From: a virus
IMG/VR virus record: IMGVR_UViG_3300006924_000007
Location: 1-64,000 of that record
Strand: one strand, 5' to 3'
Length of the DNA: 64,000 nucleotides
Made by a program: the position numbers and the translations under genes. Shown here piece by piece: positions 3,314 through 64,000 of the stretch. The notes beneath the pieces were generated by a model. It saw only the letters and a list, made by a program, of their open reading frames with translations, made no database searches and had not been told where the DNA came from. Within the stretch, counting starts at the first letter, position 1, and every line of letters starts with the position of its first letter.

Positions 3314-3345
3314 TACAGAAACATTTTTTACCCATATTTATTTAT

Positions 3346-45358: not shown

Positions 45359-46060
45359 ATGTCAATAAGTTTTGATGATCTGACGGGCAAAAAACCTCAG
45401 CAGCAACCACAACAACAACAATCACAAGACGAATTGCTTTCGTTATTTCCAACACCAGTTCTCATCGCACAATATCCTGTTCCCTACGAGAAAGAGTTAG
45501 AATATATTCGTAACTTGCCCTGTCGTAGAGAAAACAAGGGTGGAGATGCAGGTAATAAGATACACTATAACCGACAGTCAGAAGATACTTTTGTATTAGA
45601 TAAACCTGAACTCTCTAACATCAGGGAGTTCATTAAGTCTAAGATTTTTAAGTTTGCTCGTGAAGTCATGAGTTCTAAAGATGAGGTGGTGATTACTCAA
45701 TCATGGATTAATAAGTCTGGTAAGGGTGAATCGCACCACGAACATGTTCATCCTAATAGTATGATTAGTGGTGTCTGGTATCCTGTCATCAATGAACAAC
45801 TACCACCAATTCAGTTTCGTAGTAGATCACAAAGAGATATTAGTCTGTCTAACGATAAGTATAACAACTTTAATAGCGCAACATTCTTACTACCCATGAA
45901 GATGGGAGAGTTGATTATCTTCCCAAGTAATCTCACTCATAGTGTTCCTGCTAATCAATCAGAGACTGAACGTATTAGTTTGTCCTTTAATACTTGGGTC
46001 AAGGGTAGTCTTGGTGACATCAATTCACTGACCTATCTTCCACTTGATCGCTGCGTATGA
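45359..46060 (+). CDS. putative 2OG-Fe(II) oxygenase (TIGR02466-like)
   Basis: LFPTP, SWIN, HxH (EHVHPNS), FPSNL.H.V, RISLSFN. Confidence 0.88.
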   Translation: MSISFDDLTGKKPQQQPQQQQSQDELLSLFPTPVLIAQYPVPYEKELEYIRNLPCRRENKGGDAGNKIHYNRQSEDTFVLDKPELSNIREFIKSKIFKFAREVMSSKDEVVITQSWINKSGKGESHHEHVHPNSMISGVWYPVINEQLPPIQFRSRSQRDISLSNDKYNNFNSATFLLPMKMGELIIFPSNLTHSVPANQSETERISLSFNTWVKGSLGDINSLTYLPLDRCV

Positions 46061-46989
46061 GTTCCGCACTAGCACGTCCACTCCCAGAGTTTCATGGGTT
46101 TGGATATAGAATCGCACAGATAGAAAATAATACTCATTGCAACTATAAGTGTTGGTTCTGTCCTAATGCTTATGATAAACCTGCACCAAAAGAGTGTATG
46201 ACCATAGAGCAGTTTCGTAAGATCCTTACAGAAATTCGTTCTGTCTATACACCATGGGAACTGAATGATGTCTCATTTGCCACATATAATGAACCCAATC
46301 TTGATGATGGGTTTAAGGATAAGTTGCAATTGATGACTGATATGGGATTTAATTATGAACATATCTCTAATGGTAGTATGGTTACAACTGAATTGACTGA
46401 TTGGTTGATTGAGAATCCACAACGAATTAAACAGTTTCGTCTCAATATTCCAACACTGGATGAGAAGAAGTGGAAGGATATTACAGGTGCATCTACTGCT
46501 GTAATGTATCGGATGTATTATCAGTTGATGTATCTGTTTGAGAACTCACAGAGACTTAACTTTCCCATCACAGTGATTGTGAATGGTGATGGTAGTGCAA
46601 GTCATAAAGAAGAGTTCATGAAGGTATATCAGAAGTTCCAAAGATGTCCTCCTGGTATTAACTTTAGTATGACCGGATTGATTGATAGGGCTGGAACACT
46701 TGAGGGTGCAGAGTGTGAAACACAAAAACTACCCACAGGTGCAATTGACTGGGGTGATCAACCAACACGATGTAATGCAGGATACTTTGATAATCTATAT
46801 TTTGGTATCAAAGGTAATGTATTCTATTGCTGCCATGATTACCACCAAGAGTATAGTTGTGGTAATATAAATGATACACCGCTGAAAGAACTTCTAAGTT
46901 CTGAGGCATATGAAACTCAAAAACTGAGGTTTCAACAAGATTTCTGTCGTAAATGTGAACAAGCAAGACCACTGGAGGTAGTAAAATGA
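46057..46989 (+). CDS. radical SAM protein with SPASM/twitch domain
   Basis: CNYKCWFC; C-terminal C...G.V.YCCHD...GNI....L..L...C..C. Confidence 0.9.
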   Translation: MSSALARPLPEFHGFGYRIAQIENNTHCNYKCWFCPNAYDKPAPKECMTIEQFRKILTEIRSVYTPWELNDVSFATYNEPNLDDGFKDKLQLMTDMGFNYEHISNGSMVTTELTDWLIENPQRIKQFRLNIPTLDEKKWKDITGASTAVMYRMYYQLMYLFENSQRLNFPITVIVNGDGSASHKEEFMKVYQKFQRCPPGINFSMTGLIDRAGTLEGAECETQKLPTGAIDWGDQPTRCNAGYFDNLYFGIKGNVFYCCHDYHQEYSCGNINDTPLKELLSSEAYETQKLRFQQDFCRKCEQARPLEVVK

Positions 46990-47594
46990 CTGTAACACCA
47001 CAAATGATCGCAATGAATAAGTATGATACTCAACTGCGTGACTTGATTCACGTTGAGAAGGGTATTATTCCTGCTAATCTGTGTGATTATCTCGTAGAAG
47101 AGATTGAAAAGAATGAATGGCGTCCTCATACTTGGTATAATAATGTTGCCAACTCATTCGGTTCTGAAGAGACAATGGAACTGGATGTGCAGAACATTAC
47201 TGGTGAGCATCAACAACTACTCACACCTTTTATGATTCAGGCAGGGTCAGCATATAATGCAATCTATTCATTTAACTGCGAAAGAACTCAGCAGATTATG
47301 AATAAGTTCAGTTCAATTCGTTTTAATCGTTATGCACCAGGACAGATTATGCGTCAGCACCATGACCATATCCATTCACTGTTTGATGGTAATGAGAAAG
47401 GTATTCCTGTCCTTTCATTCATTCTTAACCTGAATGATGACTATGAAGGTGCAGAACTATTCTTCTGGGATGATTATGTTGTGCCCCTGGGTAAGGGTGA
47501 TATTATTATGTTCCCGTCTCTCTTCTTATTCCCTCATGGTGTGAAGGAAGCAACTAAAGGTAAGCGTTATTCTGCTGTATCTTGGGCTTGGTAA
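46986..47594 (+). CDS. 2OG-Fe(II) oxygenase (prolyl-hydroxylase-like)
   Basis: HHDH, LNDDYEG, FPHGV, RYS.VSW. Confidence 0.88.
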   Translation: MTVTPQMIAMNKYDTQLRDLIHVEKGIIPANLCDYLVEEIEKNEWRPHTWYNNVANSFGSEETMELDVQNITGEHQQLLTPFMIQAGSAYNAIYSFNCERTQQIMNKFSSIRFNRYAPGQIMRQHHDHIHSLFDGNEKGIPVLSFILNLNDDYEGAELFFWDDYVVPLGKGDIIMFPSLFLFPHGVKEATKGKRYSAVSWAW

Positions 47595-48707
47595 TTACAA
47601 TCCACCGTGACCGTTAGATGCAGATCCAGCACCACTCCTTGATTGTGTCAAATTACCAAAATCTATTGCATTTCCAGTGCTCATAATCTGAACATAATCA
47701 ATTGTATCTGTTCTACTCGGTGTTGGACGATTACCACCAGCCCAGACTCCACGAGTTGGTGATGATGTAGCCTTCATTTCACCACCTCCAACAGTTAAAT
47801 CACCAAAATCAACTGCATCTCCTAATGTTGCAATAGTAATATACTCAATAGTATTAACATTAGGACCTGCACCCCCGAAAAGTCCCCTAACAGAATTTGA
47901 ACAAGCTCCACCACCAGATGCAAACACATCGCCAAATTCTGATGCATTACCTAATGTAGATATCATTATAAATTCAAGAGTTGCTCCACCAAATACTGCC
48001 CTTGTTGAAGACTGACAAGCAGATTTCCCGCCAACATTTGAAGCATTACCAAAGTCTTGTGCATTTCCTGTTGACTGAATAGTTATATAATCAATAGTAT
48101 CAACATTAGTAGTAGTATAACCAGCAATAAAAAGACCTCTGGTTGAATTTGAAGCACCGCCAGCAGACATTCTTGCTTGTGATAAATTACCAAAATCTGC
48201 TGCATTTCCAGTTGATGCAATAGTAACAAAATCAATTGTATCTAATACTGTTGGAGTTCTTCCACCTCCGAAACACGCTCTGGTTCTGTCAGAAACTCCT
48301 GCTTGTAAGTGAACACCACTGCTTTGTGCATCACCAAAATTAATTGCATCTCCTGTTGACTGAATAGTTATATAATCAATTGTATTCGTATTTGGAGTTT
48401 CTCCACCAGAGAAGAGTCCACGAGTTCCACCAGTCTGTAACTCTGGTGACCAACTATCAACTTCCATCCATATTCCGTTGGGAGTTGTTCCAAATCCAAC
48501 GGGCCCGAGTATATAAACTTCTAATTTCTTGGAGTCAGTATTAAATCTGATTGATCCTGCGGGTGCTTGATTGTATGATGGTAATTCTTGTCCAGAAACA
48601 TCACCAAAGGCACTTCCACCTCCTACTGTGGTATAACTTCCGCTACCACCACCTGAACCACCGGAGCTGCCACCGCCTCCGCCTCCGCCGCCGCCACCAT
48701 ATCCCAT
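47595..48707 (-). CDS. kelch-like repeat protein, paralog 1 (poly-Gly N-terminus)
   Basis: six RG.F.GG...IDY.TI...GNA.DFG.L repeats; ends SNGHGGL. Confidence 0.8.
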   Translation of the reverse strand: MGYGGGGGGGGGGSSGGSGGGSGSYTTVGGGSAFGDVSGQELPSYNQAPAGSIRFNTDSKKLEVYILGPVGFGTTPNGIWMEVDSWSPELQTGGTRGLFSGGETPNTNTIDYITIQSTGDAINFGDAQSSGVHLQAGVSDRTRACFGGGRTPTVLDTIDFVTIASTGNAADFGNLSQARMSAGGASNSTRGLFIAGYTTTNVDTIDYITIQSTGNAQDFGNASNVGGKSACQSSTRAVFGGATLEFIMISTLGNASEFGDVFASGGGACSNSVRGLFGGAGPNVNTIEYITIATLGDAVDFGDLTVGGGEMKATSSPTRGVWAGGNRPTPSRTDTIDYVQIMSTGNAIDFGNLTQSRSGAGSASNGHGGL

Positions 48708-49729
48708 TAGCCTAGACCTCCATGTGAATCAGAACAAGCAGCAGTTTGGTTTCTTGCAAGATCTAAGTCACCAAAATCCTGTGCATCTCCAAGAGTGTTT
48801 ATAGTTACATAAGAAATAGAATCGCCATCAGATGTCATATCACCAAAAATTGCTCTGGTTGGTGATGAACATGCTGATCCTAAAGTACATCCACTAATAC
48901 AATCACCAAAATCTATTGCATCACCAAGACTTGCGATCGTTATATGATCAATGATATTAGTATTAGATGGATTTGCTCCACCAAAAAATAATCCCCTCGT
49001 AGAATTGGATGCGGAAGCACCTTCTTTTCTCGCGTCTGTCAAATCCCCAAAGTCCTTTGTATTACCTTCAGTTGATATTGTTATATACTCTATTGTATTA
49101 ACTGCAGGGTATGGAGATGCATATGGAGAATTTGATAAAGCAATAATACCTCTAGTTGTTGATGCATTCGACATGCCATAAGCAAAGGTTGCTGATGCAT
49201 CTCCAAAAGTAGTTGCATTACCAAGACTGTTTATAGTTATAAACTCCATCTCACGAAAAGCTGTAACAGTGGGAGCAATATTCCCTCCCACACAAATACC
49301 TCTGGTGTTATCAGAAAGACAAGCAGTTCCTCTTTTTTGTCTGGTTAAATCACCAAAGTCAAAAGTATTTCCAAGTTGAGATATTGTAAGATATTGTATG
49401 GTGTTAATGTTAGTTGGAAATGTCTCTCCACCCATGAAGATGCCACGAGTGGATGATGCACAACCACCAAATTCTGCAGTGGTTGTTGTTAAATTGCCAA
49501 AGTCGAGACCATTTCCTAAAGTAGAGATGGTAAATTTATCCATTCTCTCTTTGAGTCCTGGTGATGTTCTACCACCGACAAAGATACCAGTTCCTCTACC
49601 ACCACGATAAGCAGTATCACCTCTTGGTAGTGCCATTGCACCAGTAGAGTTCATCTCAACGGTGCCAGAAATTACAGGACCATTAGTTCCACTCAAACTT
49701 TGTATATTGTTTACCTTAATGTCTGACAT
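48707..49729 (-). CDS. kelch-like repeat protein, paralog 2
   Basis: same repeats; ends SDSHGGLG. Confidence 0.8.
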   Translation of the reverse strand: MSDIKVNNIQSLSGTNGPVISGTVEMNSTGAMALPRGDTAYRGGRGTGIFVGGRTSPGLKERMDKFTISTLGNGLDFGNLTTTTAEFGGCASSTRGIFMGGETFPTNINTIQYLTISQLGNTFDFGDLTRQKRGTACLSDNTRGICVGGNIAPTVTAFREMEFITINSLGNATTFGDASATFAYGMSNASTTRGIIALSNSPYASPYPAVNTIEYITISTEGNTKDFGDLTDARKEGASASNSTRGLFFGGANPSNTNIIDHITIASLGDAIDFGDCISGCTLGSACSSPTRAIFGDMTSDGDSISYVTINTLGDAQDFGDLDLARNQTAACSDSHGGLG

Positions 49730-49752
49730 CGGTTAATATCTCATACGATTAT

Positions 49753-50886
49753 TTATCCAAGACCACCATGTGAATCAGAACAACCATTTTTTAATCTTCT
49801 TCTTGCGGCAGTTAAATTTCCAAAGTCGGTTGCATCACCAAGAGTTGCGATAGTCACATAATCAATGACATCACTTAATGATGGTGATTCTCCCCCTGCC
49901 CAACAACAACGAGAGGGTGAAGAAAACGCACCTACTTGTCCTCTTCCTACAGTCAAATCGCCAAAATCTAGTGAATCTCCAAGAGATGCGATTGTGATGT
50001 AATCTATTGCTGCATTAAAGGGAACTCCCGGATAATCTCCACCACCAAATACACCTCTTACAGAATTCGATGCACCGTTAGCATCAGTTGCCCCATTTAT
50101 ACCAGCATCTCCAAAATCTTGTGCATTTCCCATCGTGGAAATGGTCACGTATTGCATGGTATTGTTATATGTTCCAGGTGATGGAGCATAATAGTTTATC
50201 CAAATACCTCTGGTTGAACTTGCTGCATTGGAGAAATTATTACAAGCAGTGACCAGATCACCAAAGAAGAATGCATTCCCTAATGTAGAAATTGTAATTT
50301 GATCAATGGTGCTTCTATAATTGGACTGGTCGTAACCTCCTCCGGCCAATCCTCTAGTGTCATTTGATACTGTACCGACTCCGTGCTCTGCTGAACTTAA
50401 ATCTCCAAAATCAAATGCATTTCCAGTTGCAGAAATTGTTACATAATCAATTGTATTTTGAGAAGTATCACCTGGAGCATTTCCTCCACACCAAACTCCA
50501 CGCACAGAAGAAGCAAGACCAGAAACATAATCGTTTGCTCTAGTTAAATCGCCAAAATCGGTTGCATCTCCTGTTGTTGCAATTGTTACGTAATCAATAG
50601 TATTAAATTGTGAAGGACCAAATCCTCCACCCCACATTCCACGACCTCTACTACCTCTCTCTGCCGTAGTTCCACTTGGAGGAATGAAGTGTGCCGTGGA
50701 ATTTACTTCTACAATACCATCAACATCTGTTCCTCTCTTTCCATCTCTGCTTGTTATATTATCTACTTTTAGGTTTGCGGTTCTATCATCACTTACACGG
50801 CGATATCCAGACCCACCAGAAGCACCTGATCCTCCTCCTGATCCACCGCCACCGCCGCCGCCGCCACCGCCGCCACCGTATCCCAT
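49753..50886 (-). CDS. kelch-like repeat protein, paralog 3 (poly-Gly N-terminus)
   Basis: same repeats. Confidence 0.8.
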   Translation of the reverse strand: MGYGGGGGGGGGGGGSGGGSGASGGSGYRRVSDDRTANLKVDNITSRDGKRGTDVDGIVEVNSTAHFIPPSGTTAERGSRGRGMWGGGFGPSQFNTIDYVTIATTGDATDFGDLTRANDYVSGLASSVRGVWCGGNAPGDTSQNTIDYVTISATGNAFDFGDLSSAEHGVGTVSNDTRGLAGGGYDQSNYRSTIDQITISTLGNAFFFGDLVTACNNFSNAASSTRGIWINYYAPSPGTYNNTMQYVTISTMGNAQDFGDAGINGATDANGASNSVRGVFGGGDYPGVPFNAAIDYITIASLGDSLDFGDLTVGRGQVGAFSSPSRCCWAGGESPSLSDVIDYVTIATLGDATDFGNLTAARRRLKNGCSDSHGGLG

Positions 50887-50917
50887 TAGTTACTCCGACT
50901 ATAGTATCTCACAGTAT

Positions 50918-51988
50918 TTATCCCAATCCACCGTGACCATTAGAAATGCCCATAGAAAGTCTTCTTGCACTGGTCAAATTACCAAAGTCAACTGCATCAC
51001 CTAAACTCATAATCTGTACATAAGCAATTGTATCAACATTTGGTGTTCCTCCGCCAGCAAAAATTGAACGAGTCGATGATGCTGCTGATGTTGAATATGC
51101 TGCATCATAGGTTAAATCACCAAAATCTATTGCATTTCCAAGGGTGGCAATTGTTCCATAACTTAAAGATCCAACAGGAGATCCACCATCTCCATGAATA
51201 CCTCTTACAGAATTGGAAGATGAACCTCTATTTGAAGTGGTAGATTGTGCATCTCCAAAGTCCGCAGAATTTCCTAATGTGGATATTGTAATATATTGAA
51301 TTGTATTAATGCTGCTAATACTGGGAGTTGTACCTGTGTTTCCACATAGGTGAATACCTCTTGTTGATGAAGCCCATCCACCACCTGTATGATTTCCTGC
51401 ACCAGTATATAAATCACCAAAATCAACAGCATCTCCTGTTGATGCAATGGTTATGTAGTCGATTACATTTGATCCTTTATAATTGGGAGATTGAGGTGCA
51501 AGACCACCCATAAGAACACCACGAGTGGAATTTGCACAACTGCCCATACTTCTTCTGGCAGTGGTCATATCACCAAATGTGGTGTCATTACCTGTTGATG
51601 ATATGGTGATGTACTTCAGGTTCGTTGAATAATGAGGTAAATTTCCTCCGAATACACCTCTTGTTCTTGATGCCAGAGCAAATCCCTCATAATCGGATGT
51701 TGCAGTTCCAAAAGAAATTGCATCGCCAGTGGAACTCATATTAACATAATCAATACCAGTTTGATCTCTTCCACATACAATTACACCACGAGTTCCACCA
51801 GTCTGAATATCTGGTGAATCAGTTGTGAGTTGAACCCATTCTCCTGCTGCCATGGTTCCAATGCCAGCATAAGAACTTGTGCTTCCACCTTCCATTCCAA
51901 TACGGAAATACTCTAGTTTCATAGAGTCCGTGTTGAATCTGATTGCTCCTGGAGTTATATTACCTGGTGCGTTTTCTCCGTGTGCCAT
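50918..51988 (-). CDS. kelch-like repeat protein, paralog 4
   Basis: same repeats. Confidence 0.8.
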   Translation of the reverse strand: MAHGENAPGNITPGAIRFNTDSMKLEYFRIGMEGGSTSSYAGIGTMAAGEWVQLTTDSPDIQTGGTRGVIVCGRDQTGIDYVNMSSTGDAISFGTATSDYEGFALASRTRGVFGGNLPHYSTNLKYITISSTGNDTTFGDMTTARRSMGSCANSTRGVLMGGLAPQSPNYKGSNVIDYITIASTGDAVDFGDLYTGAGNHTGGGWASSTRGIHLCGNTGTTPSISSINTIQYITISTLGNSADFGDAQSTTSNRGSSSNSVRGIHGDGGSPVGSLSYGTIATLGNAIDFGDLTYDAAYSTSAASSTRSIFAGGGTPNVDTIAYVQIMSLGDAVDFGNLTSARRLSMGISNGHGGLG

Positions 51989-52992
51989 TATCCTAGACCT
52001 CCGTGTGAATCAGAACATGCACCAACTTCTCTTCCTGCTTCAATTAAATCTCCAAAGTCAACTGCATTACCAATAGATGCAATGGCGACATAATCAATTA
52101 CATCACTATCACTTGGAGTATCACCACCACCCCAGACACCACGAGTACTAGAGGAACAAGCACCAGGATAATATCTTGCTAATGTCAAATCACCAAAGTC
52201 TTGTGCATTTCCTTTTGATGCAATAGTGACATAATCCATTGTATTAACTCTGGCTGGGGCCGAGACTCCACCAGCAAAAACACCACGAGTTGATGAAGAA
52301 CAAGCAGAAACTCCATATCTTACTTGAGTTAAATCTCCAAAGTCTGCTGCATTTCCTAATGATGCTATGGTGATAAAATCTATTGTGTTTTGATTAGTTG
52401 CTCCAGGATCTTGACCACCACCAAAGACACCACGAGTACTAGAGGAACAAGCACCAAGATTACTTCTTATTTGAGTTAAGTCACCAAAGTATGCAGCATT
52501 TCCTTTTGATGCAATGGTAATATAATCTATTATTTTTACTTTAGCTGTTGCATCCTCACCACCACCAAAGACCCCACGAGTACTAGAGGAACAAGCAGGA
52601 AATTCTTTTCTTACTCCAGTCAAATCACCAAAATCAAATGCATTACCTGTTGATGATATAGTTACAAATTCTATTATGTTTAATCTACTTGGAACAGCAC
52701 CACCACCAAAGACACCACGAGTACTAGAGGAACAAGCACTCGGAGCTTTCCTTGCTGCAGATAAATTGCCAAAATCAGTTGCATTTCCTAGTGTAGAAAT
52801 TGTTATATACTCAATTCTATCAGTAGATGGATCTCCCCCACCAAAAACACCACGACCTCTACCACCACGATAAGCAGTATCACCAGAAGGCATCACAATA
52901 CCAGAAGTTCCAGTGAAGGTAGTGATACCTGCAATATCTGGTCCTCTGGATGCATCTTGACTTTTGATTTGATCTATTCTAAATTCTGACAT
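51988..52992 (-). CDS. kelch-like repeat protein, paralog 5
   Basis: six highly homogeneous repeats ACSSSTRGVFGGG. Confidence 0.8.
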   Translation of the reverse strand: MSEFRIDQIKSQDASRGPDIAGITTFTGTSGIVMPSGDTAYRGGRGRGVFGGGDPSTDRIEYITISTLGNATDFGNLSAARKAPSACSSSTRGVFGGGAVPSRLNIIEFVTISSTGNAFDFGDLTGVRKEFPACSSSTRGVFGGGEDATAKVKIIDYITIASKGNAAYFGDLTQIRSNLGACSSSTRGVFGGGQDPGATNQNTIDFITIASLGNAADFGDLTQVRYGVSACSSSTRGVFAGGVSAPARVNTMDYVTIASKGNAQDFGDLTLARYYPGACSSSTRGVWGGGDTPSDSDVIDYVAIASIGNAVDFGDLIEAGREVGACSDSHGGLG

Positions 52993-54047: not shown

Positions 54048-54072
54048 CAGATATTACTCTCCATAGTTATAT

Positions 54073-55206: not shown

Positions 55207-55208
55207 GA

Positions 55209-56342: not shown

Positions 56343-56344
56343 AA

Positions 56345-57478
56345 TTATAACCCTCCGTGACCGTTAGAGCAAGACATCATACCTCTGTTAGTTCTTGTCA
56401 AATCACCAAAATCTGATGCATTTCCTGTGGTTGGAATAGTTATAAAATCAATAGTATTAACAACAGTTGGAGTTCCACCACCACCAAAACAAGCACGGGT
56501 TGGTGAAGAAACTCCAGCTCTACTGAAACTAGCAGTCTGTAAATCACCAAAATCTTGTGCATTTCCTGTTGTTGATATAGTAATAAAGTCTATAATATTA
56601 GTGGTCGGTTCTCCTCCGGCAAAAATACCTCTTGTGGCATTTGATCCCGATCCAGCAGTTCCTCTGGCAAGTGTTAAATCTCCAAAGTCTACTGCATTTC
56701 CTAGAGTTGTTAGTGTTATATACGATATATTATTAATTTTTGAACCAGTATTACCGCCAGCAGCAATTCCACGAATCGGTGACCCACAAATTCCCTCTGT
56801 TTGTGCATCTGCAGTATAACTTAAATCACCATAATCAACTGAATTTCCTTCTGATGCAATACTGATATATTGAATTACATTTGATTTCGATGGAGCTCCT
56901 CCTCCAAAAAAGACACCTCTTGTAGAAGATGATGCTCCACCAACACCTTGTCCCATTCCTGTAGCCAAATCACCAAAATCTGAAAAATTTCCAGTGGATG
57001 CAAAAGTACCAAAATCTATTGTATTAACTATTGAACCAGTCTCACCTCCAGCAGCTACGGCACGAGTTGATGATGCTGCGGATCCCCCTGTCCATCTTGC
57101 TTGAGATAGATTGCCAAAGTCTTGTGCATTACCGAGTGTTGATATACTTATGTAGTCTATGGTATCTGAAACGGATGGACCTCCACCCATGAATAATCCA
57201 CGATGTCCTGTTCCACCGGTAGAGTTTGTATTATTTTGATCTCCAAGTTCTTCACTACTTGCCTCAAACTCTAACCATACTAATCCATTCCAATACTCTA
57301 AGTGTGCAGAGTCAGTATTAAAACGAATAGACCCAGGAGGGCAATCAGAGGGTCTCTGTGCCGTGGTTCCAGTTGGGGGTATAAAATATTGCTGACCAGA
57401 AAATGTCGTGATACCAGATAATACAGGGCCACCAGTATTTGATTCGTTTCCTAAAGTGTTGACCCTTATCTCAGACAT
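56345..57478 (-). CDS. kelch-like repeat protein, paralog 9
   Basis: same repeats. Confidence 0.8.
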   Translation of the reverse strand: MSEIRVNTLGNESNTGGPVLSGITTFSGQQYFIPPTGTTAQRPSDCPPGSIRFNTDSAHLEYWNGLVWLEFEASSEELGDQNNTNSTGGTGHRGLFMGGGPSVSDTIDYISISTLGNAQDFGNLSQARWTGGSAASSTRAVAAGGETGSIVNTIDFGTFASTGNFSDFGDLATGMGQGVGGASSSTRGVFFGGGAPSKSNVIQYISIASEGNSVDYGDLSYTADAQTEGICGSPIRGIAAGGNTGSKINNISYITLTTLGNAVDFGDLTLARGTAGSGSNATRGIFAGGEPTTNIIDFITISTTGNAQDFGDLQTASFSRAGVSSPTRACFGGGGTPTVVNTIDFITIPTTGNASDFGDLTRTNRGMMSCSNGHGGL

Positions 57479-57481
57479 GTA

Positions 57482-58273
57482 TTATCTGTTCCAGAAATCC
57501 ATATTGATATACTTATTTATCACAGATGAACTGAGCACTTCTGAGTAATGTTTTGAAGTCTTTTTAATACTTGGTCTGACTTCGTGCATTGTCTCAAGAC
57601 CATATACTTCCTTATCTTTTTCTCTGTCTTTTGCAACGATATTATCAAAATTATACTCATATGGTTTTAACTTCAAAAACCAGTGGATGCCTTGTAGTGC
57701 CTTTTCTGGGTCATTTACCAAATCATCATATTGCACAAAATGAATGTGTTTTGTCTGATTTTGACGAAATGCGGTTGCAAGTGCATTCATACTTTCCCAT
57801 ACAATTCCACCAGGATTCATCATAAACTCACACCGACTATCATCAGTGATAAACAATCCTTGCTTGAGCATTGCCTTATCAATAAAATTGAATCCTCCAT
57901 CCTTATGAAACAATGTAATGAAAGATGCCAATATATCTAGTGGATTACGAACAGTGCAAATAATCCTAGGATCATCTGTTACGTACTTTTTTAACATGTC
58001 AATGTGTGCTGGCCATGCACGACATTTGTCAATAATAATAGGTTCGTCTCTATTACAATAATAAGTGATAATCCCATCACGTACCATTTTACGAAATATA
58101 TCCGGTTTGGGAAATGCCTGTGCCTGCTCCCCTTTAAGTATATCGTCCGTATAATACATAACCTCAAATACAGGAGATAGTGTTCCCGCATGTATTTGAG
58201 GATTTTGGTTTAATATTGCCGTCAGAAGCGTAGATCCCGAACGTGGGAGTCCGCAATCAAAATGAAATTTCAT
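57482..58273 (-). CDS. sulfotransferase
   Basis: 5'-PSB GLPRSGSTLL; 3'-PB RNPLDILAS; YDDLV..P. Confidence 0.9.
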   Translation of the reverse strand: MKFHFDCGLPRSGSTLLTAILNQNPQIHAGTLSPVFEVMYYTDDILKGEQAQAFPKPDIFRKMVRDGIITYYCNRDEPIIIDKCRAWPAHIDMLKKYVTDDPRIICTVRNPLDILASFITLFHKDGGFNFIDKAMLKQGLFITDDSRCEFMMNPGGIVWESMNALATAFRQNQTKHIHFVQYDDLVNDPEKALQGIHWFLKLKPYEYNFDNIVAKDREKDKEVYGLETMHEVRPSIKKTSKHYSEVLSSSVINKYINMDFWNR

Positions 58274-58298
58274 AATTTTTGAAAAACCCTACAGGTCA

Positions 58299-58331
58299 AA
58301 AAATTGCCGGGATTTTTTTACGGCAATTTTT
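58299..58331. repeat. intergenic 11-bp inverted repeat
   Basis: AAAAATTGCCG-11 nt-CGGCAATTTTT. Confidence 0.8.
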
Positions 58332-58353
58332 GGAAATAAAAGTTGAATTTGGT

Positions 58354-58932
58354 TTAGGAGTTGACTGCCTCGTAAATATCCCAGAGTCTTGTTGCCTCTG
58401 CTGCATAATCGTATGCAGTCTCAAAGGTTGTAGTATCAGTTGTCGTTATAGTATCGGTTCTAGATTCTGCACCATCAGTTGTCACAATAGTTCTTGATGT
58501 TGATGTGGCAGTCTTGACCTCTACAACATTTCCGGTTCCAGAGAACGTAACCTTATCGGTCGTGGTTGTAGAAAGTCCTACTCCCGTGAACCATGCATCA
58601 TCAGTGCCAGTAGTAATTGAAGTCTGAACACCAGTGACTGTATCAGTCAGAACTTTATAGTCATTCGTAGTTCCAACAGTTGTAATATAAGTTTGAAGGT
58701 CTGCCTTACTTGCAATAGAACCAACATAACCATCAGGAGTTCCGTCAGAATCTACATCACCACATCCCATACCCAAATAAATGGTGTCTTGTGGAGCACC
58801 AAAACGAGGAAGTTTGCCTGCCTTATTTGCACTTACGCTGTGTTGACCTTTGAATGCTCTGGAGTCCGTGCATAACCACTCAGGTTGCTTACCATGAATG
58901 GTTAATGTATATTTAATGAGAGGATATGCCAT
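58354..58932 (-). CDS. Thr-rich hypothetical protein
   Basis: 192-aa ORF in operon. Confidence 0.7.
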   Translation of the reverse strand: MAYPLIKYTLTIHGKQPEWLCTDSRAFKGQHSVSANKAGKLPRFGAPQDTIYLGMGCGDVDSDGTPDGYVGSIASKADLQTYITTVGTTNDYKVLTDTVTGVQTSITTGTDDAWFTGVGLSTTTTDKVTFSGTGNVVEVKTATSTSRTIVTTDGAESRTDTITTTDTTTFETAYDYAAEATRLWDIYEAVNS

Positions 58933-58937
58933 TGTTG

Positions 58938-59660
58938 TTAATTGTTCCTAGAGTATTTACCATTGAAGAGATGTGAACCAAAGTGTCCGGTCTCCACCCA
59001 AGGAGCACACCAGACTTTGCCACCAATCTGCCTATAAGAATGACAGAAGAAATAATCTTCCGATAACAAATGATTTGTATCTTTATTTATCTCAACACGG
59101 AAGTAGTCTTTGATTTCTACTCCGTCTGGTAATGATCTCCCACCATTAGTATATATCGGAGTTTGTGGTTCTAGTGCCTGCAAACAATCACGACGGATCA
59201 TCATGAATGCATTGCCACCATGTTCAATCTCAAATGGAGTTTCTTCATTCTCCATCTCAATACCAGGAAGTGTATTGATATTAAAGACTCCACCAGTGCG
59301 TCCAATATCATCATCACCGGCAAGTGCTGCCTGACGAATCTCTTCCCAGTTATATCCTTTCAGTGCAACAGGTCCAATGATTAGTTCCTTATCTGCCTGA
59401 ATCATCTTTACAATATCCTCAACACGGAATTTAATATCCGCATCAATGAATAGAAGATGAGTTGCATCAGGTAGATTCATAAAGTGGTGAGCAATAGTAT
59501 TACGCCCACGCTGAATCAATGACTCATTACCAAGAAAGATGGTAGTGAGTTTGACACCAGATTTATTGCAAGACTCAGAGAGTTTAAGTAATGAATCTGT
59601 ATATTCACTTGTACACATACCCCCGTACATGGGGGTTCCAATCACAAGATGCAAATCCAT
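58938..59660 (-). CDS. GT-A fold glycosyltransferase-like protein
   Basis: TPMYGG, ESLI.RGRN, LLFIDAD (DxD), LSEDY.FC, H.G. Confidence 0.85.
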   Translation of the reverse strand: MDLHLVIGTPMYGGMCTSEYTDSLLKLSESCNKSGVKLTTIFLGNESLIQRGRNTIAHHFMNLPDATHLLFIDADIKFRVEDIVKMIQADKELIIGPVALKGYNWEEIRQAALAGDDDIGRTGGVFNINTLPGIEMENEETPFEIEHGGNAFMMIRRDCLQALEPQTPIYTNGGRSLPDGVEIKDYFRVEINKDTNHLLSEDYFFCHSYRQIGGKVWCAPWVETGHFGSHLFNGKYSRNN

Positions 59661-59661
59661 A

Positions 59662-60591
59662 TCACTCTTCTACAGATGCTTTCAGTTTAGCATACTCTTC
59701 ATCTACTTTAGATTCTGGAAGAACAGCATAGTTTGGTATTGCAAGAGACTTCTCATCAAGAATCTTAAATCCACGACTTTCTGCAAAGCGTTCTGAACAA
59801 TTCTCAAACTTATCTGCACACTTTTCAAGCCACTCAACAGTCATCTCATGTGAAGGTGCCTGACCATTTGCAATCAGTTCGTTCTCCATCTTCAGATAGT
59901 TGAAGACTTCTGCTTGTGCATGTGAAACATTGACACCAATATCAAACAGATAGATAGAGTTTCCTTCATCAATCACACCACCACGAGGACGGGCAGAGTT
60001 CAATGCTTGCTTCAGGCAGGTCATTACATGATAACGCTTCTCTTCACGCTCATAATCTTCTTCTGTAATATGGTCTTTGCCAATGTGATCTAGAACAGAA
60101 CGATACTGAGTCATCAGGAAGGACATCTTACGGATGGCACCCTTCATTGAGTTCTCAATGTTCATGTTGTTATTCATGAGTTCGATCATCTCAATCTCAA
60201 GTTCTTCACGATCTAAATCATCCTTTTCAGCATCAATCTCACGTTGCTTCTTACGGATTTTAATGTCATTCTTACGGCGATTGATTTGTGCCTCTGCAAG
60301 GGCACTCTTTGTTCTTTCAATCGCGGCAAGAGTATGCTTGATGCTACGGATAGGTGTCAGGTCAGTGATGTCCAAAGTCACAGTCATCATCTGTGAGTGT
60401 GACTTGTAGAAGTTGTCACAAGCAAGTTTAGTTGCAGGTAATGTTTCCTCAATATGAGTCAACATTCCTGTGTATTCTTGCGGCAGAGGACCAGTTGCAA
60501 GTTGTGCAAGGTCACTCTTGAGCGTTGTGACAGAAATCTCTGAACCAGGTGTAATATCTACCGAAGTAATAGCAGAACTTTCTTCATTCAT
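59662..60591 (-). CDS. hypothetical coiled-coil protein
   Basis: 309-aa helical ORF; late-promoter-like ATAAATA upstream (~60622-60629). Confidence 0.75.
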   Translation of the reverse strand: MNEESSAITSVDITPGSEISVTTLKSDLAQLATGPLPQEYTGMLTHIEETLPATKLACDNFYKSHSQMMTVTLDITDLTPIRSIKHTLAAIERTKSALAEAQINRRKNDIKIRKKQREIDAEKDDLDREELEIEMIELMNNNMNIENSMKGAIRKMSFLMTQYRSVLDHIGKDHITEEDYEREEKRYHVMTCLKQALNSARPRGGVIDEGNSIYLFDIGVNVSHAQAEVFNYLKMENELIANGQAPSHEMTVEWLEKCADKFENCSERFAESRGFKILDEKSLAIPNYAVLPESKVDEEYAKLKASVEE

Positions 60592-60650
60592 ATCAGTTCA
60601 ATCTATAGTGTAATAACTACCATATTTATTATACTATAAGAAGTCGGTTT

Positions 60651-61688
60651 TTACAACCCTCCGTGAGCGTTGGAGCAAGCAGCAATATTGTTTCTTGCAA
60701 CTGTTAAATCACCAAAGTCAACAGCATCTCCTTGTGTTGAAATAGTTACATAATCAATGATATTAGAATATCCAGGATCACTTCCTCCACCATTAACGCC
60801 TCTTGTTGGTGATGAGCATCCAGCACTGGTATCCTTAACCGTAGTTAAATCACCAAAGTTTGTTGAATTTCCTGTGGTTGCAATTGTAATATATTCTATC
60901 GTATTTACAGCGGCTGGTTGACTTCCACCAAAGAATAATCCCCTAGTTGAATTGGAAGCACCAGTTCCCATTGCGGCTCTATTTGCAGACAAATCTCCAA
61001 AATTTTGTGCAGATCCAAGTGTCGGTATTGTTATAAATTGAATTAAACTTTGAATTCCTGGATTTTGACCACCGGCAAAAACACCACGAACAGGAGATGC
61101 TACAGAACTGTGGTATTTTGATGCACCAATTAGATTGCCAAAGTCTTTTGATCCTCCTTTTGATGCAATCGTAATATAATTAATTGTATCAATACCACCA
61201 GTCAAAGGTGAATTACCATCTCCACCAGCAATTATACCCCTTGTTTGATTGGAAACTGTTCCTGCTCTTGCTGTTGGGTCTATTAGATCACCAAAATCTA
61301 TTGCATCTCCTGTTGAAGCAATGGTGATATAGTCAATAGTATCAAGTCTTGGTGGAGTATATCCACCCATAAAAACTGCACGAGTGTTTGATGCTAAACC
61401 ACTCAACATACCACGACCACCAGTTAAATTACCAAAGTCAGTCGCATTTCCAGTAGATGAAATATTTGCATAATCAATTATATCCAGGTATCCACCAGCA
61501 CCAGGATTAAGTCCTCCCGCCCATACACCACGGGCACCAGGTTGAGTATCAACACTTCTACCAAGGTTTGGTGTGCTTAACTGAAACTCTGCCCACTGTG
61601 AGCCATCCCAGAGTTCTGGTTTATTACTATCAGTATTAAATCGTATTGCGCCTCTTGGGATTTCACCTGATGGGGGAAGATTACTCAT
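60651..61688 (-). CDS. kelch-like repeat protein, paralog 10
   Basis: same repeats; ends SNAHGGL. Confidence 0.8.
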   Translation of the reverse strand: MSNLPPSGEIPRGAIRFNTDSNKPELWDGSQWAEFQLSTPNLGRSVDTQPGARGVWAGGLNPGAGGYLDIIDYANISSTGNATDFGNLTGGRGMLSGLASNTRAVFMGGYTPPRLDTIDYITIASTGDAIDFGDLIDPTARAGTVSNQTRGIIAGGDGNSPLTGGIDTINYITIASKGGSKDFGNLIGASKYHSSVASPVRGVFAGGQNPGIQSLIQFITIPTLGSAQNFGDLSANRAAMGTGASNSTRGLFFGGSQPAAVNTIEYITIATTGNSTNFGDLTTVKDTSAGCSSPTRGVNGGGSDPGYSNIIDYVTISTQGDAVDFGDLTVARNNIAACSNAHGGL

Positions 61689-61710
61689 ATTTTTATACCT
61701 CTATCGATAT

Positions 61711-63462
61711 TTATCCAAGACCACCATGAGCATTTGATAATCCAAATAAACCATTCTCATCGTAAACCAGATCACCAAAATCAATTGAATTTCCGGTGGT
61801 TGGGATTGCAATATATTGAATTACATTACCAGCAGAGGATGGTTGACTTCCACCAGCAAATATTCCACGAGTTGATGATGAGGCAGTGTTTCCTCTTTGG
61901 TTATGTTTGTATAAATCACCAAAATCCTGCCCATTTCCAGATGTTGATATTGTGACAAATTCAATTGTCTGTGTATTACTAGGGGTGATTCCCCCACCAA
62001 ATACGGCTCTTGTCGAATTTGAACACCCTGACAATCTAAATCTAGATTCGCTTAAATCACCAAAGTCTTTTGCATTTCCAGTTGTTGCAATGGTTACATA
62101 TACTATGCTGTTTTCAGCACCACCCGAATTTGAACCAGCGATTACCCCTCTGACAGGACTTGCTCCTCTTGCCGATGCATATAAACCTTGTATTAGATCG
62201 CCATAATCTGTGGCATCACCAGTGGTTGCAATTGTTACATAATCAATAACATTGAATGTGCTTGGAAAATATCCTCCAGCAAACACTGCACGAGTTGAAT
62301 TAGAAATACCAGCAGCTTGCTGCCTTGCTTGGGTTAAATCACCAAAATTTGTTGCATCTCCTGTTGATGTAATGGTAATATAATCTATTGTATTTGTCGC
62401 TGCGCTGGTAGATGGTGCTATGTTTCCTCCAGCAATTATACCCCTTGTTCTTGATGCACAACCATTACCATCTAAAGCACCAGACTGTCGAGTCAAATCA
62501 CCAAAATCTGTGCCATTCCCAAGGGTTGCAATAGTAATATACTCAATGGTATTAACATGAGGATCGCCACCACCAAAAACACCACGGGCACTACCATCAC
62601 TAACAGCATTGGTAGCAAAATTCGGAAATCTTTCTTCTGTCGTTCCCTTTGGTAGTGTTAACCAGTTCTGTGAGACAAATCCTGCTCCACCTTGGAATGT
62701 TGGACCAGCAGTAGGATCAACATTTCTTGTCAGTCCTGGATTGAATGTTGTAATACCAATGGGACTATCAGTTGCTGTGGGTGTTGGAGAACTTGTGCGA
62801 TCACCATGTGCTACAATGACCTTTCCTGTTTTTTCTGCAAAAATATTCTCTCCATCATACAACCCAAGGAAAACAGTTTCTGGGTGAACTTCTAGTTCTC
62901 TGGTTGGAACTGTAAAGTTTTCTGTATAAACTGCATGTCCCTTACAAATACGAATGTTGGACATATATCCTTGGAATTCATATGTGGCTGGCGCGGGTGT
63001 ATAGTCTCCAATTCCTAAAGGAGTTAGATCATTATATATTGTTCCCGATACAGTATTGGTGTATTTCTCTATACCATTTATAAAATATCTAAAAGTATTA
63101 CTACTTCTAGTAAGAGCAAAATGACTCCATTCATTTTGAAATATACTGTCTGTTCCAGTTGCATTGGCAGTAGAAATCATATCATAACTACCACCATTGC
63201 TACTCACATATAATGACAAAGAATTTGAACTCATAAAGTATGTCTGTAGCGAATATCCAGGAGTAACAAGTGTTGCATATGAACCCTGAGGTATTCCAGT
63301 TGGATAAATAAATCCTTCTATTGTAAAGTCTCCACTACCAAAACTAAAGTCATCACTATCAGCAATACTCAAATGATCCTGAACCCCATCAAAAAATACT
63401 GACCCTGTGTTCTCGGTGGATACTCCAACTGCTGCAATCTTATTGACTCTTAAATTTGCCAT
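61711..63462 (-). CDS. kelch-like repeat protein, paralog 11, with N-terminal LamG/ConA-like domain
   Basis: SVFFDG..D.L, DFTIE.F.Y, W.HFALTR, F.GYMSNIRI then six repeats. Confidence 0.8.
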   Translation of the reverse strand: MANLRVNKIAAVGVSTENTGSVFFDGVQDHLSIADSDDFSFGSGDFTIEGFIYPTGIPQGSYATLVTPGYSLQTYFMSSNSLSLYVSSNGGSYDMISTANATGTDSIFQNEWSHFALTRSSNTFRYFINGIEKYTNTVSGTIYNDLTPLGIGDYTPAPATYEFQGYMSNIRICKGHAVYTENFTVPTRELEVHPETVFLGLYDGENIFAEKTGKVIVAHGDRTSSPTPTATDSPIGITTFNPGLTRNVDPTAGPTFQGGAGFVSQNWLTLPKGTTEERFPNFATNAVSDGSARGVFGGGDPHVNTIEYITIATLGNGTDFGDLTRQSGALDGNGCASRTRGIIAGGNIAPSTSAATNTIDYITITSTGDATNFGDLTQARQQAAGISNSTRAVFAGGYFPSTFNVIDYVTIATTGDATDYGDLIQGLYASARGASPVRGVIAGSNSGGAENSIVYVTIATTGNAKDFGDLSESRFRLSGCSNSTRAVFGGGITPSNTQTIEFVTISTSGNGQDFGDLYKHNQRGNTASSSTRGIFAGGSQPSSAGNVIQYIAIPTTGNSIDFGDLVYDENGLFGLSNAHGGLG

Positions 63463-63465
63463 GAC

Positions 63466-64000
63466 TTATAATCCTCCGTGACCGTTAGAGCAGTTTCCTC
63501 TCATCATTAGACTTCTAGCAACAGTTAGATTTCCAAAATCAACAGAATTTCCTGTGGTCATAATCTGCACATATTCAATTGTATCAGTTGTAGATGGAAA
63601 TCCTCCACCACCATAACATGCACGAGTTGATGATGATGGAGATCCTCCAGAATAATGATTTGTTGCAACTGTTAGATCACCAAAATCTAATGCATTACCT
63701 AAAGTTGCAATAGTAAGATAATTTATATCTTCCGCGCCTCTTCTAAAATATAATGCCCTTACTGCATTAGATGATGCACCACCACTGTGATCTACAATTG
63801 TTAAATCACCAAAGTCTGCTGAGTTTCCAAGAGTTGAAATAGTGACAAAAGTAATTGTATTTGTATCACCTGGTGCTGTCCCTCCCATGACTAGACCACG
63901 AGTAGGACTTGCTGCTCCAGCTGGGGAACTAGTTGCTGCCGTCAAATTTCCAAAATCAATAGTATTTCCATTCGTATCTATTGTAGTATATTGAATAATA
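63466..64000 (-). CDS. kelch-like repeat protein, paralog 12 (5' part outside window)
   Basis: same repeats, open to window end; ends SNGHGGL. Confidence 0.8.
   Translation of the reverse strand, partial: IIQYTTIDTNGNTIDFGNLTAATSSPAGAASPTRGLVMGGTAPGDTNTITFVTISTLGNSADFGDLTIVDHSGGASSNAVRALYFRRGAEDINYLTIATLGNALDFGDLTVATNHYSGGSPSSSTRACYGGGGFPSTTDTIEYVQIMTTGNSVDFGNLTVARSLMMRGNCSNGHGGL

Follow-up and report, generated by a model that had tools for sequence, protein, structure and literature searches.

Tandem kelch-type propeller genes in a cyanomyovirus island: candidate host-binding heads, a recurrent partner and putative accessory enzymes

What might a marine phage do with a long tandem array of related repeat-protein genes that is interrupted by, and abuts, genes for putative modifying enzymes? 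The array in question lies at the end of a 64,000-nucleotide stretch of viral DNA (the window), which corresponds to bases 1–64000 of a linear 72,257-base IMG/VR viral contig (IMGVR_UViG_3300006924_000007). In our open-reading-frame (ORF) tables, 12 related minus-strand genes run from position 47595 to the window end and are split by a four-gene block at 57482–60591; five further paralogs continue up to the end of the contig, bringing the total to 17. The encoded proteins are predicted to be six-bladed kelch-type propellers, and we propose, with slightly better than even confidence, that they constitute a tail-fibre-island array of swappable host-binding heads, accompanied by a partner protein and accessory enzymes.

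Cyanomyoviruses control Prochlorococcus and Synechococcus populations. To our knowledge, however their host recognition works is largely unexplained, and their hypervariable ‘host recognition’ islands are mostly unannotated. The array supplies a concrete candidate for such a function, namely a very large family, left unannotated in the sources consulted, with a constant kelch-type scaffold and one hypervariable face, which has expanded to 15–20 tandem genes in one marine lineage. Elsewhere, the window encodes the T4-like functions gp32 single-stranded-DNA-binding protein, gp59 loader, PhoH, thymidylate synthase (ThyX) and DenV, together with PHROG-annotated baseplate hub and wedge proteins, a tail fibre of 1851 residues and several 2-oxoglutarate (2OG)-Fe(II) oxygenases. 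The window gp32 shares 82% of its residues with the gp32 of Synechococcus phage S-SKS1 and 78–79% with those of P-SSM2 and P-SSM5. As judged from these genes, the source is an uncultured marine cyanomyovirus from the S-SKS1 neighbourhood.

A separate family of kelch-type propellers

A blade hidden Markov model (HMM), seeded from a single paralog and then iterated, detects exactly six blades of ~47 residues in every one of the 17 paralogs (102 blades overall), and all 17 proteins terminate in S[N/D]xHGGL plus 0–3 residues. Propeller domains of different paralogs are 32–53% identical (median 44%), neighbouring array genes are spaced by −1 to 80 nt, and the array DNA carries repeats with a period of 141–147 nt in 57–63 copies per family. 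A chance origin of the repeats is excluded, because this DNA period is joined by a search of a 5.8-billion-protein collection in which at least 8000 proteins, all of the 8000 candidates scored, reached E ≤ 0.001.

The AlphaFold2 model of paralog P05 (51988–52992; 334 residues), calculated from a 67-sequence alignment, is all-β with 24 strands, a mean predicted local distance difference test score (pLDDT) of 90.7 and a predicted template-modelling score (pTM) of 0.85. Foldseek searches of the Protein Data Bank (PDB) match this model to the kelch domains of KLHL12, KLHL3, Keap1 and PfK13 (E 1e-20 to 1e-18), with TM scores of 0.86–0.9 on the target, root-mean-square deviations (rmsd) of ~2.5 Å and sequence identities of 11–17%. 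VIA-align, run against 48,161 chains, gives Z scores of 37.9 for KLHL17, 37.2 for KLHL12 and 36.7 for Keap1 (rmsd ~2.0 Å over ~280 residues), followed by 25 for the kelch mutarotase YjhT, 17–20 for YWTD domains, NHL domains and fucose lectins, 16–17 for sialidases and 15.6 for galactose oxidase. On the evidence of this model, the paralogs are six-bladed kelch-type propellers at the level of fold and a separate family at the level of sequence. The BTB-kelch adaptors KLHL12, KLHL17 and Keap1 are the best structural match, but, beyond the low identity, the window proteins have no BTB or BACK domains, their repeats carry GNAxDFG and S-x-S-T-R-G motifs, and their genes lie in the context of a phage tail-fibre island.

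At the sequence level, a Pfam search of the 12 window paralogs at E ≤ 0.01 assigns no family to their propeller repeats and gives just two lines for these proteins, Laminin_G_3 towards the N-terminus of P11 and, below threshold, Nmad4 in the truncated P12; no Pfam kelch model appears even at E ≤ 10 in the three paralogs checked. The only PHROG for the propellers, phrog_19111, has no assigned function, the P05 sequence finds nothing usable in the PDB (best E 0.39), and the matches listed from the 5.8-billion-protein collection are named ‘hypothetical protein’ or carry an uninformative tag. A profile search of 1.84 billion cluster representatives returned 17,543 proteins at E ≤ 0.001 (a count of clusters at 50% identity), of which 9,565 reached 1e-10 and 4,952 reached 1e-30. 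Many representatives are two-propeller forms of ~630–650 residues and some are longer multi-propeller proteins; among the best-scoring ones (P0121–P0265), two-propeller proteins of ~630–650 residues stand beside multi-propeller proteins of up to 3090 residues. Stand-alone single heads are therefore just one architecture of the family. Among 50,697 GenBank phage records, S-SKS1 is the sole match of P05 at E ≤ 1e-5, at 16 places in two records, and it is the only cultured phage carrying the family; megablast of the array DNA against GenBank phages, a collection that may lack the source record or its near relatives, gave no match. Two of the S-SKS1 propeller matches (L016:11800-13160, record 201813-203168) fall where no coding sequence is annotated, and one contains an internal TAA, so this stretch may be a pseudogene or a missed gene.

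Much of what the first-pass annotation of this DNA had described is thus sustained, namely twelve co-oriented six-repeat genes in the window, an invariant C-terminal S(N/D)xHGGL and a kelch-like β-propeller fold, the last borne out by the monomer model and its Foldseek and VIA-align matches. Its array size of at least twelve is correct for the window and understates the 17 genes of the contig.

Where, then, does the variation sit? The blade profile comprises 47 match columns over the 102 blades, and three parts of it are near-constant: a first strand that starts with R-G and ends with G-G; an I-D-Y-x-T-I strand together with a G-N-A-x-D-F-G-D-L turn and strand; and a closing S-x-S ahead of the next T-R-G. 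Each blade also has a conserved Ser/Thr cluster and a conserved Pro. Entropy and insertions peak in columns 9–14 (the loop between strands 1 and 2) and columns 35–42 (the loop between strands 3 and 4). From the topology of a four-stranded meander, rather than from model coordinates, both variable loops would be placed on the same propeller face, opposite the GNAxDFG and S-x-S-T-R-G loops. The variable columns were picked from the paralogs, and orthologs provide separate data: when the window is compared with three sister contigs, the residues of 15 pairs of positional orthologs agree at 20% in the variable-loop columns, as against 64% in those of the scaffold. Together with the entropy profile, these values bear out the earlier description of conserved strands and highly variable loops.

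The same division is seen between whole genes. Across four sister contigs, the all-α protein of the four-gene block (CC309) is 89–99% identical, its neighbour GT, a putative glycosyltransferase, 80–98% and the sulfotransferase 73–98%, whereas propellers at matching positions are 36–63% identical, with a few at ~80%. Relative to the closest contig, DNA identity is 95% in the enzyme block, 88.7% in a trio of plus-strand enzyme genes next to the array plus the adjoining propeller gene P01, and ~65–78% in most of the array; P02 is 89% identical, yet sits at a shifted array position. As read from these comparisons, the array combines a fixed framework with fast-evolving surface loops while its gene order is kept. 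Direct repeats within 47595–64000 are 60–85% identical, the longest pair measuring 291 nt at 74%. Because the array has no near-identical repeats, neither recent gene conversion nor a diversity-generating retroelement explains the pattern, and we rejected both; a reverse transcriptase was not specifically searched for.

Population data complement this picture. At least half of the sampled words of 54073–61688 are held by 14 marine DNA runs, one of which is possibly the source, and contigs from run X2 differ from this segment at 0–4 positions over pieces of up to 4.2 kb. A near-identical genotype in at least 13 further marine DNA runs indicates a real, stable and widespread population, and hypervariability therefore arises between lineages, not within the population.

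Leaders and the tail-fibre neighbourhood

If the propellers are heads, what would hold them? Three types of leader precede the first blade. The full AB leader consists of a P-x-G-x-T-x-x-R motif followed by a G-x-x-R-F-N...L-E-x-x-x-G-x-x-W motif, and other paralogs have the A part only or the B part only (AB, A and B in five, six and six of the 17, respectively). In the window, all on the minus strand and all with six-blade domains, AB leaders are found in P07 (54073–55206), P08 (55209–56342) and P09 (56345–57478), each of 377 residues. A-type leaders are found in P02 (48707–49729; 340 residues), P03 (49753–50886; 377 residues, Gly-rich N-terminus), P05 and P11 (61711–63462; 583 residues). 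B-type leaders are found in P01 (47595–48707; 370 residues, Gly-rich N-terminus), P04 (50918–51988; 356 residues), P06 (52992–54047; 351 residues), P10 (60651–61688; 345 residues) and P12, which the window end cuts at 64000 (63466–64000; whole gene 63466–64488 on the contig, 340 residues). In P11, P13 and P15, the A-only leader is itself preceded by one or two concanavalin A (ConA)-like Laminin_G_3 (LamG) domains (PF13385, E 1e-17 in P11). Followed in the direction of transcription, the array runs AB AB A B A B A B, then the genes for CC309, GT, ThrRich and the sulfotransferase, then AB AB AB B A B A A B. Ahead of the enzyme block the leaders thus alternate (A B A B A B), and the pattern after the block is identical in the sister loci L012, L028 and L013.

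These N-terminal modules point to the phage tail. The leader of P07 matches phrog_1325, phrog_2803, phrog_5621 and phrog_20787 (‘virion structural protein’), and the PHROGs matched by the LamG part of P11 bear the names baseplate wedge subunit or virion structural protein. For the AB leader of P09, matches occur in 197 phage records, nearly all of them cyanomyoviruses. In the three records whose genomic positions were inspected, leader-bearing genes lie directly 3′ of tail-fibre genes (P-SSM4 and S-SM1) or the leader lies inside an annotated tail fibre (S-SSM7). The same leader, fused to unrelated C-terminal domains, is present in the proteins T4-GC 347, 349, 350 and 351 (sequences from the PMC3037559 supplement), and the P09 leader aligns to T4-GC 347 of S-SM1 (SSM1_044) over 55 residues with an E value of 6e-8. 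In the ORF table of PMC3037559, the column ‘Existence of Proteomic Data?’ reads YES for T4-GC 344, 346 (fibre) and 347. Taken together, these alignments identify the leader as a module common to cyanomyovirus proteins encoded beside tail fibres; one of them, T4-GC 347, has virion proteomic data, and T4-GC 349–351 carry no such flag.

The positions of the arrays are consistent with this assignment. Sister contigs contain 15, 20 and 18 propeller matches, and PHROG searches find runs of tail-fibre proteins directly upstream of the array and on the same strand in two of them (G001 and G002). The S-SKS1 array wraps around the ends of its record, with the sulfotransferase gene mid-array, 2OG oxygenase genes on both flanks, and tail-fibre and baseplate-wedge genes upstream. 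In G001, a gene for a 288-residue tyrosine-recombinase/integrase-like protein (L186:13041-13907; phrog_1, E 6e-38) lies between the tail-fibre genes and the array.

Tail-fibre position and the shared leader make virion display of the propellers likely. We propose that this T4-like cyanomyovirus, a relative of S-SKS1, has its host-recognition (tail-fibre) island here and that the array, with at least 17 stand-alone heads, makes up the distal part. Each head would consist of a short leader, present whole or as its first or second half and sometimes behind ConA-like lectin domains, and a six-bladed propeller; the shared leader would dock the head on the virion, and the variable face would bind host surface structures. 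A repertoire of such heads could confer multiple specificities under strong diversifying pressure. That the propellers are virion-attached host-binding heads docked through the leader is, in our assessment, moderately probable. A speculative extension, which we regard as improbable, is that A-only and B-only leaders complement each other in trans to yield two-headed units.

Several components of this scheme have precedents. In phages with multiple receptor-binding proteins (RBPs), such as CBA120 (TSP1–4), G7C (gp63.1/gp66) and PhiK64-1, tandem RBP genes lie behind the tail genes, and each protein joins a conserved N-terminal docking module to a variable head. The window differs from these anchor-branch systems in having 17 small, monomer-sized kelch-type heads rather than trimeric β-helix tailspikes, as well as an additional all-α partner gene, and docking is only inferred here. 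T4-like pelagimyophages and cyanomyophages have been described as carrying a large hypervariable island in the structural region, whose variability leads to poor metagenomic read recruitment and which is termed the host recognition cluster (HRC; Zaragoza-Solas et al. 2020, PMC7029224). Compared with the available part of that paper, the window is similar in its tail fibres, its glycosyltransferase and radical S-adenosylmethionine (SAM) genes, and its conserved flanks and enzyme block around a divergent array, but differs in its propeller family, tandem arrays of 15–20 genes, split leaders and CC309. Kelch proteins are also encoded by the jumbo phage vB_PcaM_CBB (CBB_550, CBB_552 and CBB_554), and CBB_552 is a mature virion component (PMC5259590, available part); likewise, matches to our propeller model in BFVD include phiKZ-like entries named ‘virion structural protein’. 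These proteins resemble ours as phage-encoded six-bladed kelch-type propellers. Unlike the window family, which matches no Pfam model at E ≤ 10, the CBB proteins match InterPro and Pfam kelch signatures; their genes are not set in long arrays, and neither a CC309-type partner nor an enzyme block is reported for them. Our literature search, which left most subscription journals outside its scope, found no description of the repeat family, the arrays of 15–20 genes, the split leaders, the CC309 partner or the recurrent sulfotransferase and GT company. The island type, multi-RBP docking and virion kelch proteins are hence known, whereas the propeller repeat family, long arrays, split leaders and CC309 pairing appear to be new, in that we found no published description.

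A recurrent partner and an uneven company of enzymes

CC309 (59662–60591, minus strand; 309 residues), which adjoins the propeller genes, is an all-α protein of no recognized family. Its AlphaFold2 model (pLDDT 81.5; 42-sequence alignment) has a long helical hairpin at ~80–170 and a compact helical C-terminal domain. It has no Pfam or NCBIfam match and no tblastn match in the 50,697 phage records, matches phrog_1409 only weakly, and, searched as a profile against the PDB, finds nothing below E 0.028 (best, LcrV). Foldseek returns no match at E ≤ 0.001, and VIA-align only generic helical hairpins with Z ≤ 10.3, values that lie below its stated noise level for helical proteins and are silent on fold novelty.

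What marks CC309 out is its constancy beside propellers. Searching IMG/VR with the propeller alignment and taking the best 80 of more than 700 matching stretches gave 69 loci, which were labelled by BLAST; the sample is the top of a similarity ranking, and its loci are not all independent, as some share contigs or lie on near-identical ones (L017/18/19, L055/58, L036/37, L077/78 and L030/33). CC309 homologs are present in 50 of the 69 loci, GT homologs in 31 and ThrRich-family genes in 27, usually in the order one to three propeller genes, CC309, GT, ThrRich. If loci count as testable when CC309 was seen or when the last propeller gene was followed by at least 1.2 kb, then 50 of 61 contain CC309. 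In the reverse direction, the best 80 loci of more than 528 relatives of the CC309 alignment included 74 with at least 900 nt upstream, and a propeller lies immediately upstream of CC309 in 49 of these, elsewhere in 18 and nowhere in seven; in the 18, the propeller is mostly separated from CC309 by a ~680-residue protein with a different N-terminus. Among the 65 reverse loci with downstream sequence, GT follows within the next three labelled genes in 29 and a ThrRich-family gene in 27, and a sulfotransferase gene is found anywhere in nine reverse-search loci. In many loci of the L100–L163 range, a bladeless protein of ~620–700 residues directly precedes CC309, or precedes a ThrRich-family gene and CC309; the full-length N-termini of these proteins are alike, and such a protein may be an alternative head for CC309.

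The pairing also turns up on genome contigs from widely differing taxa. A P05 search of a one-genome-per-species collection gave 16 loci, in 12 of which a CC309 homolog adjoins the propeller gene or genes. The genomes or metagenome-assembled genome (MAG) bins concerned include Parcubacteria, Nomurabacteria, Methanospirillum, Nanoarchaeia, Promethearchaeota, Vicinamibacteraceae, Smithella, Desulfobacter vibrioformis DSM 8776, Epulonipiscium, Pirellulales and others, and the 16 contigs are probably phage or prophage contigs. The propeller–CC309 pair (L167–L181) thus occurs on contigs binned with candidate phyla radiation (CPR) bacteria, DPANN and Asgard archaea, methanogens, sulfate reducers and Epulonipiscium. 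PHROG annotation of 50 neighbours from 16 of 17 listed loci identified tape measure, tail fibre, virion structural, major head, portal and terminase proteins, one neighbour being a collagen-like tail fibre of 2759 residues directly upstream. Since these neighbours are structural proteins, the pair sits in structural modules of several phage types, and it spans phages of many morphotypes as well as contigs binned with bacteria, CPR bacteria and archaea.

Genes for tail-fibre chaperones usually sit right after the gene for the head. From its position after the head gene and the breadth of the pairing, we give an even chance to CC309 being a chaperone or adaptor of the propeller heads; in the proposed scheme, it would be their dedicated partner, as either assembly chaperone or adaptor. 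The first-pass annotation had called this gene an unknown coiled-coil and suggested a search for its co-occurrence with arrays. It proved to be a constant partner (50 of 61 testable forward loci and 67 of 74 reverse loci), and its model shows a helical hairpin with a helical C-terminal domain.

The enzyme genes keep less regular company. Downstream of CC309, all on the minus strand, are the genes for GT (58938–59660; 240 residues), ThrRich (58354–58932; 192 residues) and the sulfotransferase (57482–58273; 263 residues). The sulfotransferase call rests on two Pfam families above cut-off, PF13469 (E 8.1e-18; 65.9 bits, cut-off 27) and PF00685 (E 4.8e-13; 49.5 bits, cut-off 22), with phrog_27463 at E 4e-79, and an N-terminal P-R-S-G-S-T loop is readable, which we take to be the 5′-phosphosulfate loop for 3′-phosphoadenosine 5′-phosphosulfate (PAPS). 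GT, a putative nucleotide-sugar glycosyltransferase, matches phrog_1574 (E 6e-38), whose function is unassigned. It has a D-A-D motif with D73 and D75 invariant in 26 homologs, and a language-model feature search (Atlas), which we treat as a lead only, likens it to a ‘nucleotide-diphospho-sugar transferase’ cluster (score 0.98; Anp1 on 32% of members); it has no Pfam, NCBIfam or PDB sequence match (best PDB E 0.072 alone and 0.13 as a profile). An earlier call of a GT-A glycosyltransferase accordingly gains the invariant motif and otherwise stays a lead. ThrRich, judged from its translation, joins a small conserved domain to a Thr-rich C-terminal tail and has no Pfam or PHROG match. Just its N-terminal ~110 residues are conserved in other loci (median coverage 0.48), the tail, which varies in length, being confined to the lineage of the window.

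On the opposite side, three plus-strand genes (45326–47594) abut the array with zero gap at 47594|47595. 2OG_a (45326–46060), a 2OG-Fe(II) oxygenase of the TIGR02466 family, matches PF13759 (E 1.4e-21; 77 bits, cut-off 27) and phrog_81. The second gene (46057–46989) encodes a 310-residue radical SAM/SPASM protein (rSAM), and 2OG_b (46986–47594), of a P4H-type family, matches PF13640 (E 4.5e-12) and phrog_61 and ends one base before the stop codon of the convergent P01. The positions given in the first-pass annotation for the four-gene block and for this operon hold, and its two 2OG oxygenases have Pfam and PHROG matches. Its radical SAM–SPASM call is backed by SPASM (PF13186; 36.9 bits, cut-off 21.5) and a readable CxxxCxxC, while the Pfam Radical_SAM core, at 28.6 bits, falls just short of its cut-off of 29.5 and NCBIfam matches are weak, far under their cut-offs.

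Do these enzymes travel with the array? GT and a ThrRich-family gene are found in about half of the CC309 loci. The sulfotransferase gene is found in nine of the 69 forward loci, the rSAM gene in five and at least one of the two 2OG genes in 16, all confined to cyanomyovirus-type contigs. The rSAM proteins of the five loci plus L015 are 82–98% identical to that of the window, and a single 22% match represents the family in cultured phages. Relatives of the sulfotransferase occur in S-SKS1, two single-cell ‘Marine virus AG-345’ records, S-SRM01 and S-SCSM1. In AG-345-L05, the sulfotransferase gene lies between genes for ~950-residue proteins with leader or LamG modules in common, and a GT homolog is close by. 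In the freshwater phage S-SRM01 (L184, NC_070963 222789-239538), a 29%-identical sulfotransferase is encoded among three RCC1-annotated propeller genes, in an island that also encodes a 2OG oxygenase, a GT and a sugar epimerase; the same leader and LamG modules reappear in the genes that come next. S-SRM01 thus offers a parallel case built around a different family of propellers (annotated ‘regulator of chromosome condensation’). That sulfotransferase and GT genes recur with ‘leader plus variable head’ genes, despite a different family of head, is the best argument for a functional tie.

Competing readings of heads and enzymes

A number of observations weigh against the reading of a host-binding array with a partner and accessory enzymes. 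First, the PMC3037559 table is blank for proteomic data at T4-GC 348–354, including the closest leader counterparts, 349–351. Second, scans for sigma-70 promoters and terminators gave nothing above shuffles, and the T4 late-promoter motif TATAAATA occurs twice in the window, both times outside the array and less often than in shuffles. RNA libraries X15 and X17 contain contigs of 150–450 nt that are 90–97% alike to pieces of the sulfotransferase, ThrRich, GT, CC309 and P08 genes, which is compatible with expression of relatives and no proof of transcription; stretches that lack such contigs are uninformative. Third, CC309 is absent from 11 of the 61 testable loci (L029, L040, L041, L042, L044, L053, L064, L067, L070, L083 and L085), and S-SKS1 shows none by tblastn of the phage records or by HMM over the 31 kb examined; the partner is therefore not obligatory. 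Finally, GT relatives occur in 110 phage records from many hosts, as against the two S-SKS1 records matched by P05, and S-SM1, which has no propellers, has 2OG genes beside its tail-fibre-adjacent leader genes. Shared position could therefore explain the presence of the enzymes.

That last point leads to the strongest competitor, in which the enzymes are ordinary residents of a hypervariable cluster with no tie to the propellers and with other targets, such as host envelope glycans, phage DNA or the Thr-rich protein only. Action on host envelope glycans would mean superinfection exclusion or receptor remodelling. HRCs hold tail fibres, glycosyltransferases and radical SAM cassettes that have been read as modifying host O-chains (PMC7029224), cyanophage glycosyltransferases have been read as acting on cell walls or DNA (PMC12801897) and 2OG genes are widespread in cyanomyoviruses (PMC3037559), according to the parts of these papers available to us; the commonness of GT in phages points the same way. 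Nevertheless, GT and ThrRich-family genes follow CC309 in 29 and 27 of the 65 testable loci across different phage types, and the company is kept when the order changes (ThrRich before CC309 in L100–L115), which indicates more than the synteny of a single lineage. We consider an independent residency of the enzymes unlikely, if less so than the alternatives that follow.

In the next alternative, the propeller heads are themselves the substrates of a single dedicated pathway of hydroxylation, glycosylation and sulfation, made up of the 2OG oxygenases, rSAM, GT and sulfotransferase, close to the ‘dedicated hydroxylation/glycosylation/sulfation pathway’ of the first-pass annotation. The enzyme genes lie within the array or directly next to it and stay conserved as the heads diverge, similar sets accompany propeller or leader genes in S-SKS1, AG-345-L05 and S-SRM01, and every blade offers the conserved Ser/Thr cluster and Pro. 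There is a precedent in prediction, as Iyer et al. 2010 (PMC2938197) proposed for bacterial operons of 2OG and sulfotransferase genes that the tail-collar or collagen-like proteins encoded with them undergo hydroxylation followed by sulfation; in the available part of that paper, the operons are bacterial, known from prediction only and directed at tail-collar and collagen substrates rather than propellers. Against such a pathway stand the low counts of sulfotransferase, rSAM and 2OG genes among the propeller loci and the near absence of rSAM from cultured phages. Moreover, the 16 genome or MAG loci, 15 of which have a labelled propeller, contain no sulfotransferase or rSAM gene and a single short 2OG-like ORF (L169). 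Co-occurrence thus partly backs the idea of a dedicated pathway, while its sulfotransferase, rSAM and 2OG components are cyanomyovirus-only and the 2OG genes also sit beside island genes of the propeller-free S-SM1. As a pathway acting on the heads, we find it doubtful.

In the scheme that we favour, the GT and Thr-rich protein, the sulfotransferase and the 2OG and rSAM enzymes would be lineage-specific accessories of the island that may modify virion proteins; candidate acceptors are the Thr-rich protein or the conserved face of the propellers, which is rich in Ser/Thr. In mycobacteriophages, work by Freeman and colleagues in 2023 reportedly found that phage glycosyltransferases encoded beside structural genes O-glycosylate Ser/Thr-rich tails of virion proteins. 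That system is a possible model for GT and the Thr-rich protein, although the GT family differs, the sulfotransferase and the 2OG and rSAM enzymes are additional here, and the system in the window is known from genes alone. Decoration of island-encoded virion proteins is speculative and, in our estimate, rather unlikely; the Thr-rich tail beside GT would be its most natural acceptor, with the Ser/Thr cluster and Pro of the blades as further possibilities. Quite improbable, although of the widest consequence, is a combinatorial head library in which a split anchor gives two-headed A+B units, CC309 mediates assembly or docking, and the island enzymes put sulfated O-glycans on a mucin-like Thr-rich virion protein or the conserved Ser/Thr face of the heads. 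If correct, it would define an undescribed, widespread class of receptor-binding apparatus (~17,500 protein clusters) with its own post-translational chemistry.

Two further alternatives concern the propellers themselves. The first would make them effectors, acting inside the cell or after release, that target host proteins in the manner of poxvirus and cellular kelch adaptors. Peptide-binding BTB-kelch domains are indeed the closest solved folds, and the blank proteomic entries for T4-GC 349–351 are as expected from such a role. However, the propellers have no BTB or other adaptor domain, their genes are co-oriented with tail-fibre genes and directly 3′ of them, their leader and LamG modules are common to virion, tail-fibre and baseplate proteins, and the propeller–CC309 pair recurs in tail modules of unrelated phage types, all of which makes an effector role very improbable. 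Least probable of all is a catalytic role, in which the propellers would be depolymerase- or sialidase-like heads that cleave glycans instead of binding them: among predicted depolymerase folds in Klebsiella phage receptor-binding proteins, the six-bladed propeller ranks second in frequency (41 domains; PMC11448410, available part), but sialidases score far below kelch domains in VIA-align (Z 16–17 versus 37–38), the conserved residues are identical across the six blades, as in a scaffold and not a single active site, and the surface loops are the least conserved part.

Should the propellers be virion-borne host-binding heads, as we propose, they would provide a compact scaffold from which binders could be engineered, as well as direct access to the question of which hosts uncultured phages infect. 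Their sulfotransferase, GT and Thr-rich neighbours, moreover, would make sulfation or glycosylation of phage particles testable in cultured S-SKS1 on Synechococcus WH7803. At the other end of the window, the minus strand of 1176–4465 holds a second enzyme cluster, comprising a 2OG oxygenase, a 394-residue protein with no assigned function, a DenV-like protein and another 2OG oxygenase, which resembles the 2OG/DenV neighbourhood that adjoins the tail-fibre-adjacent genes of S-SM1.

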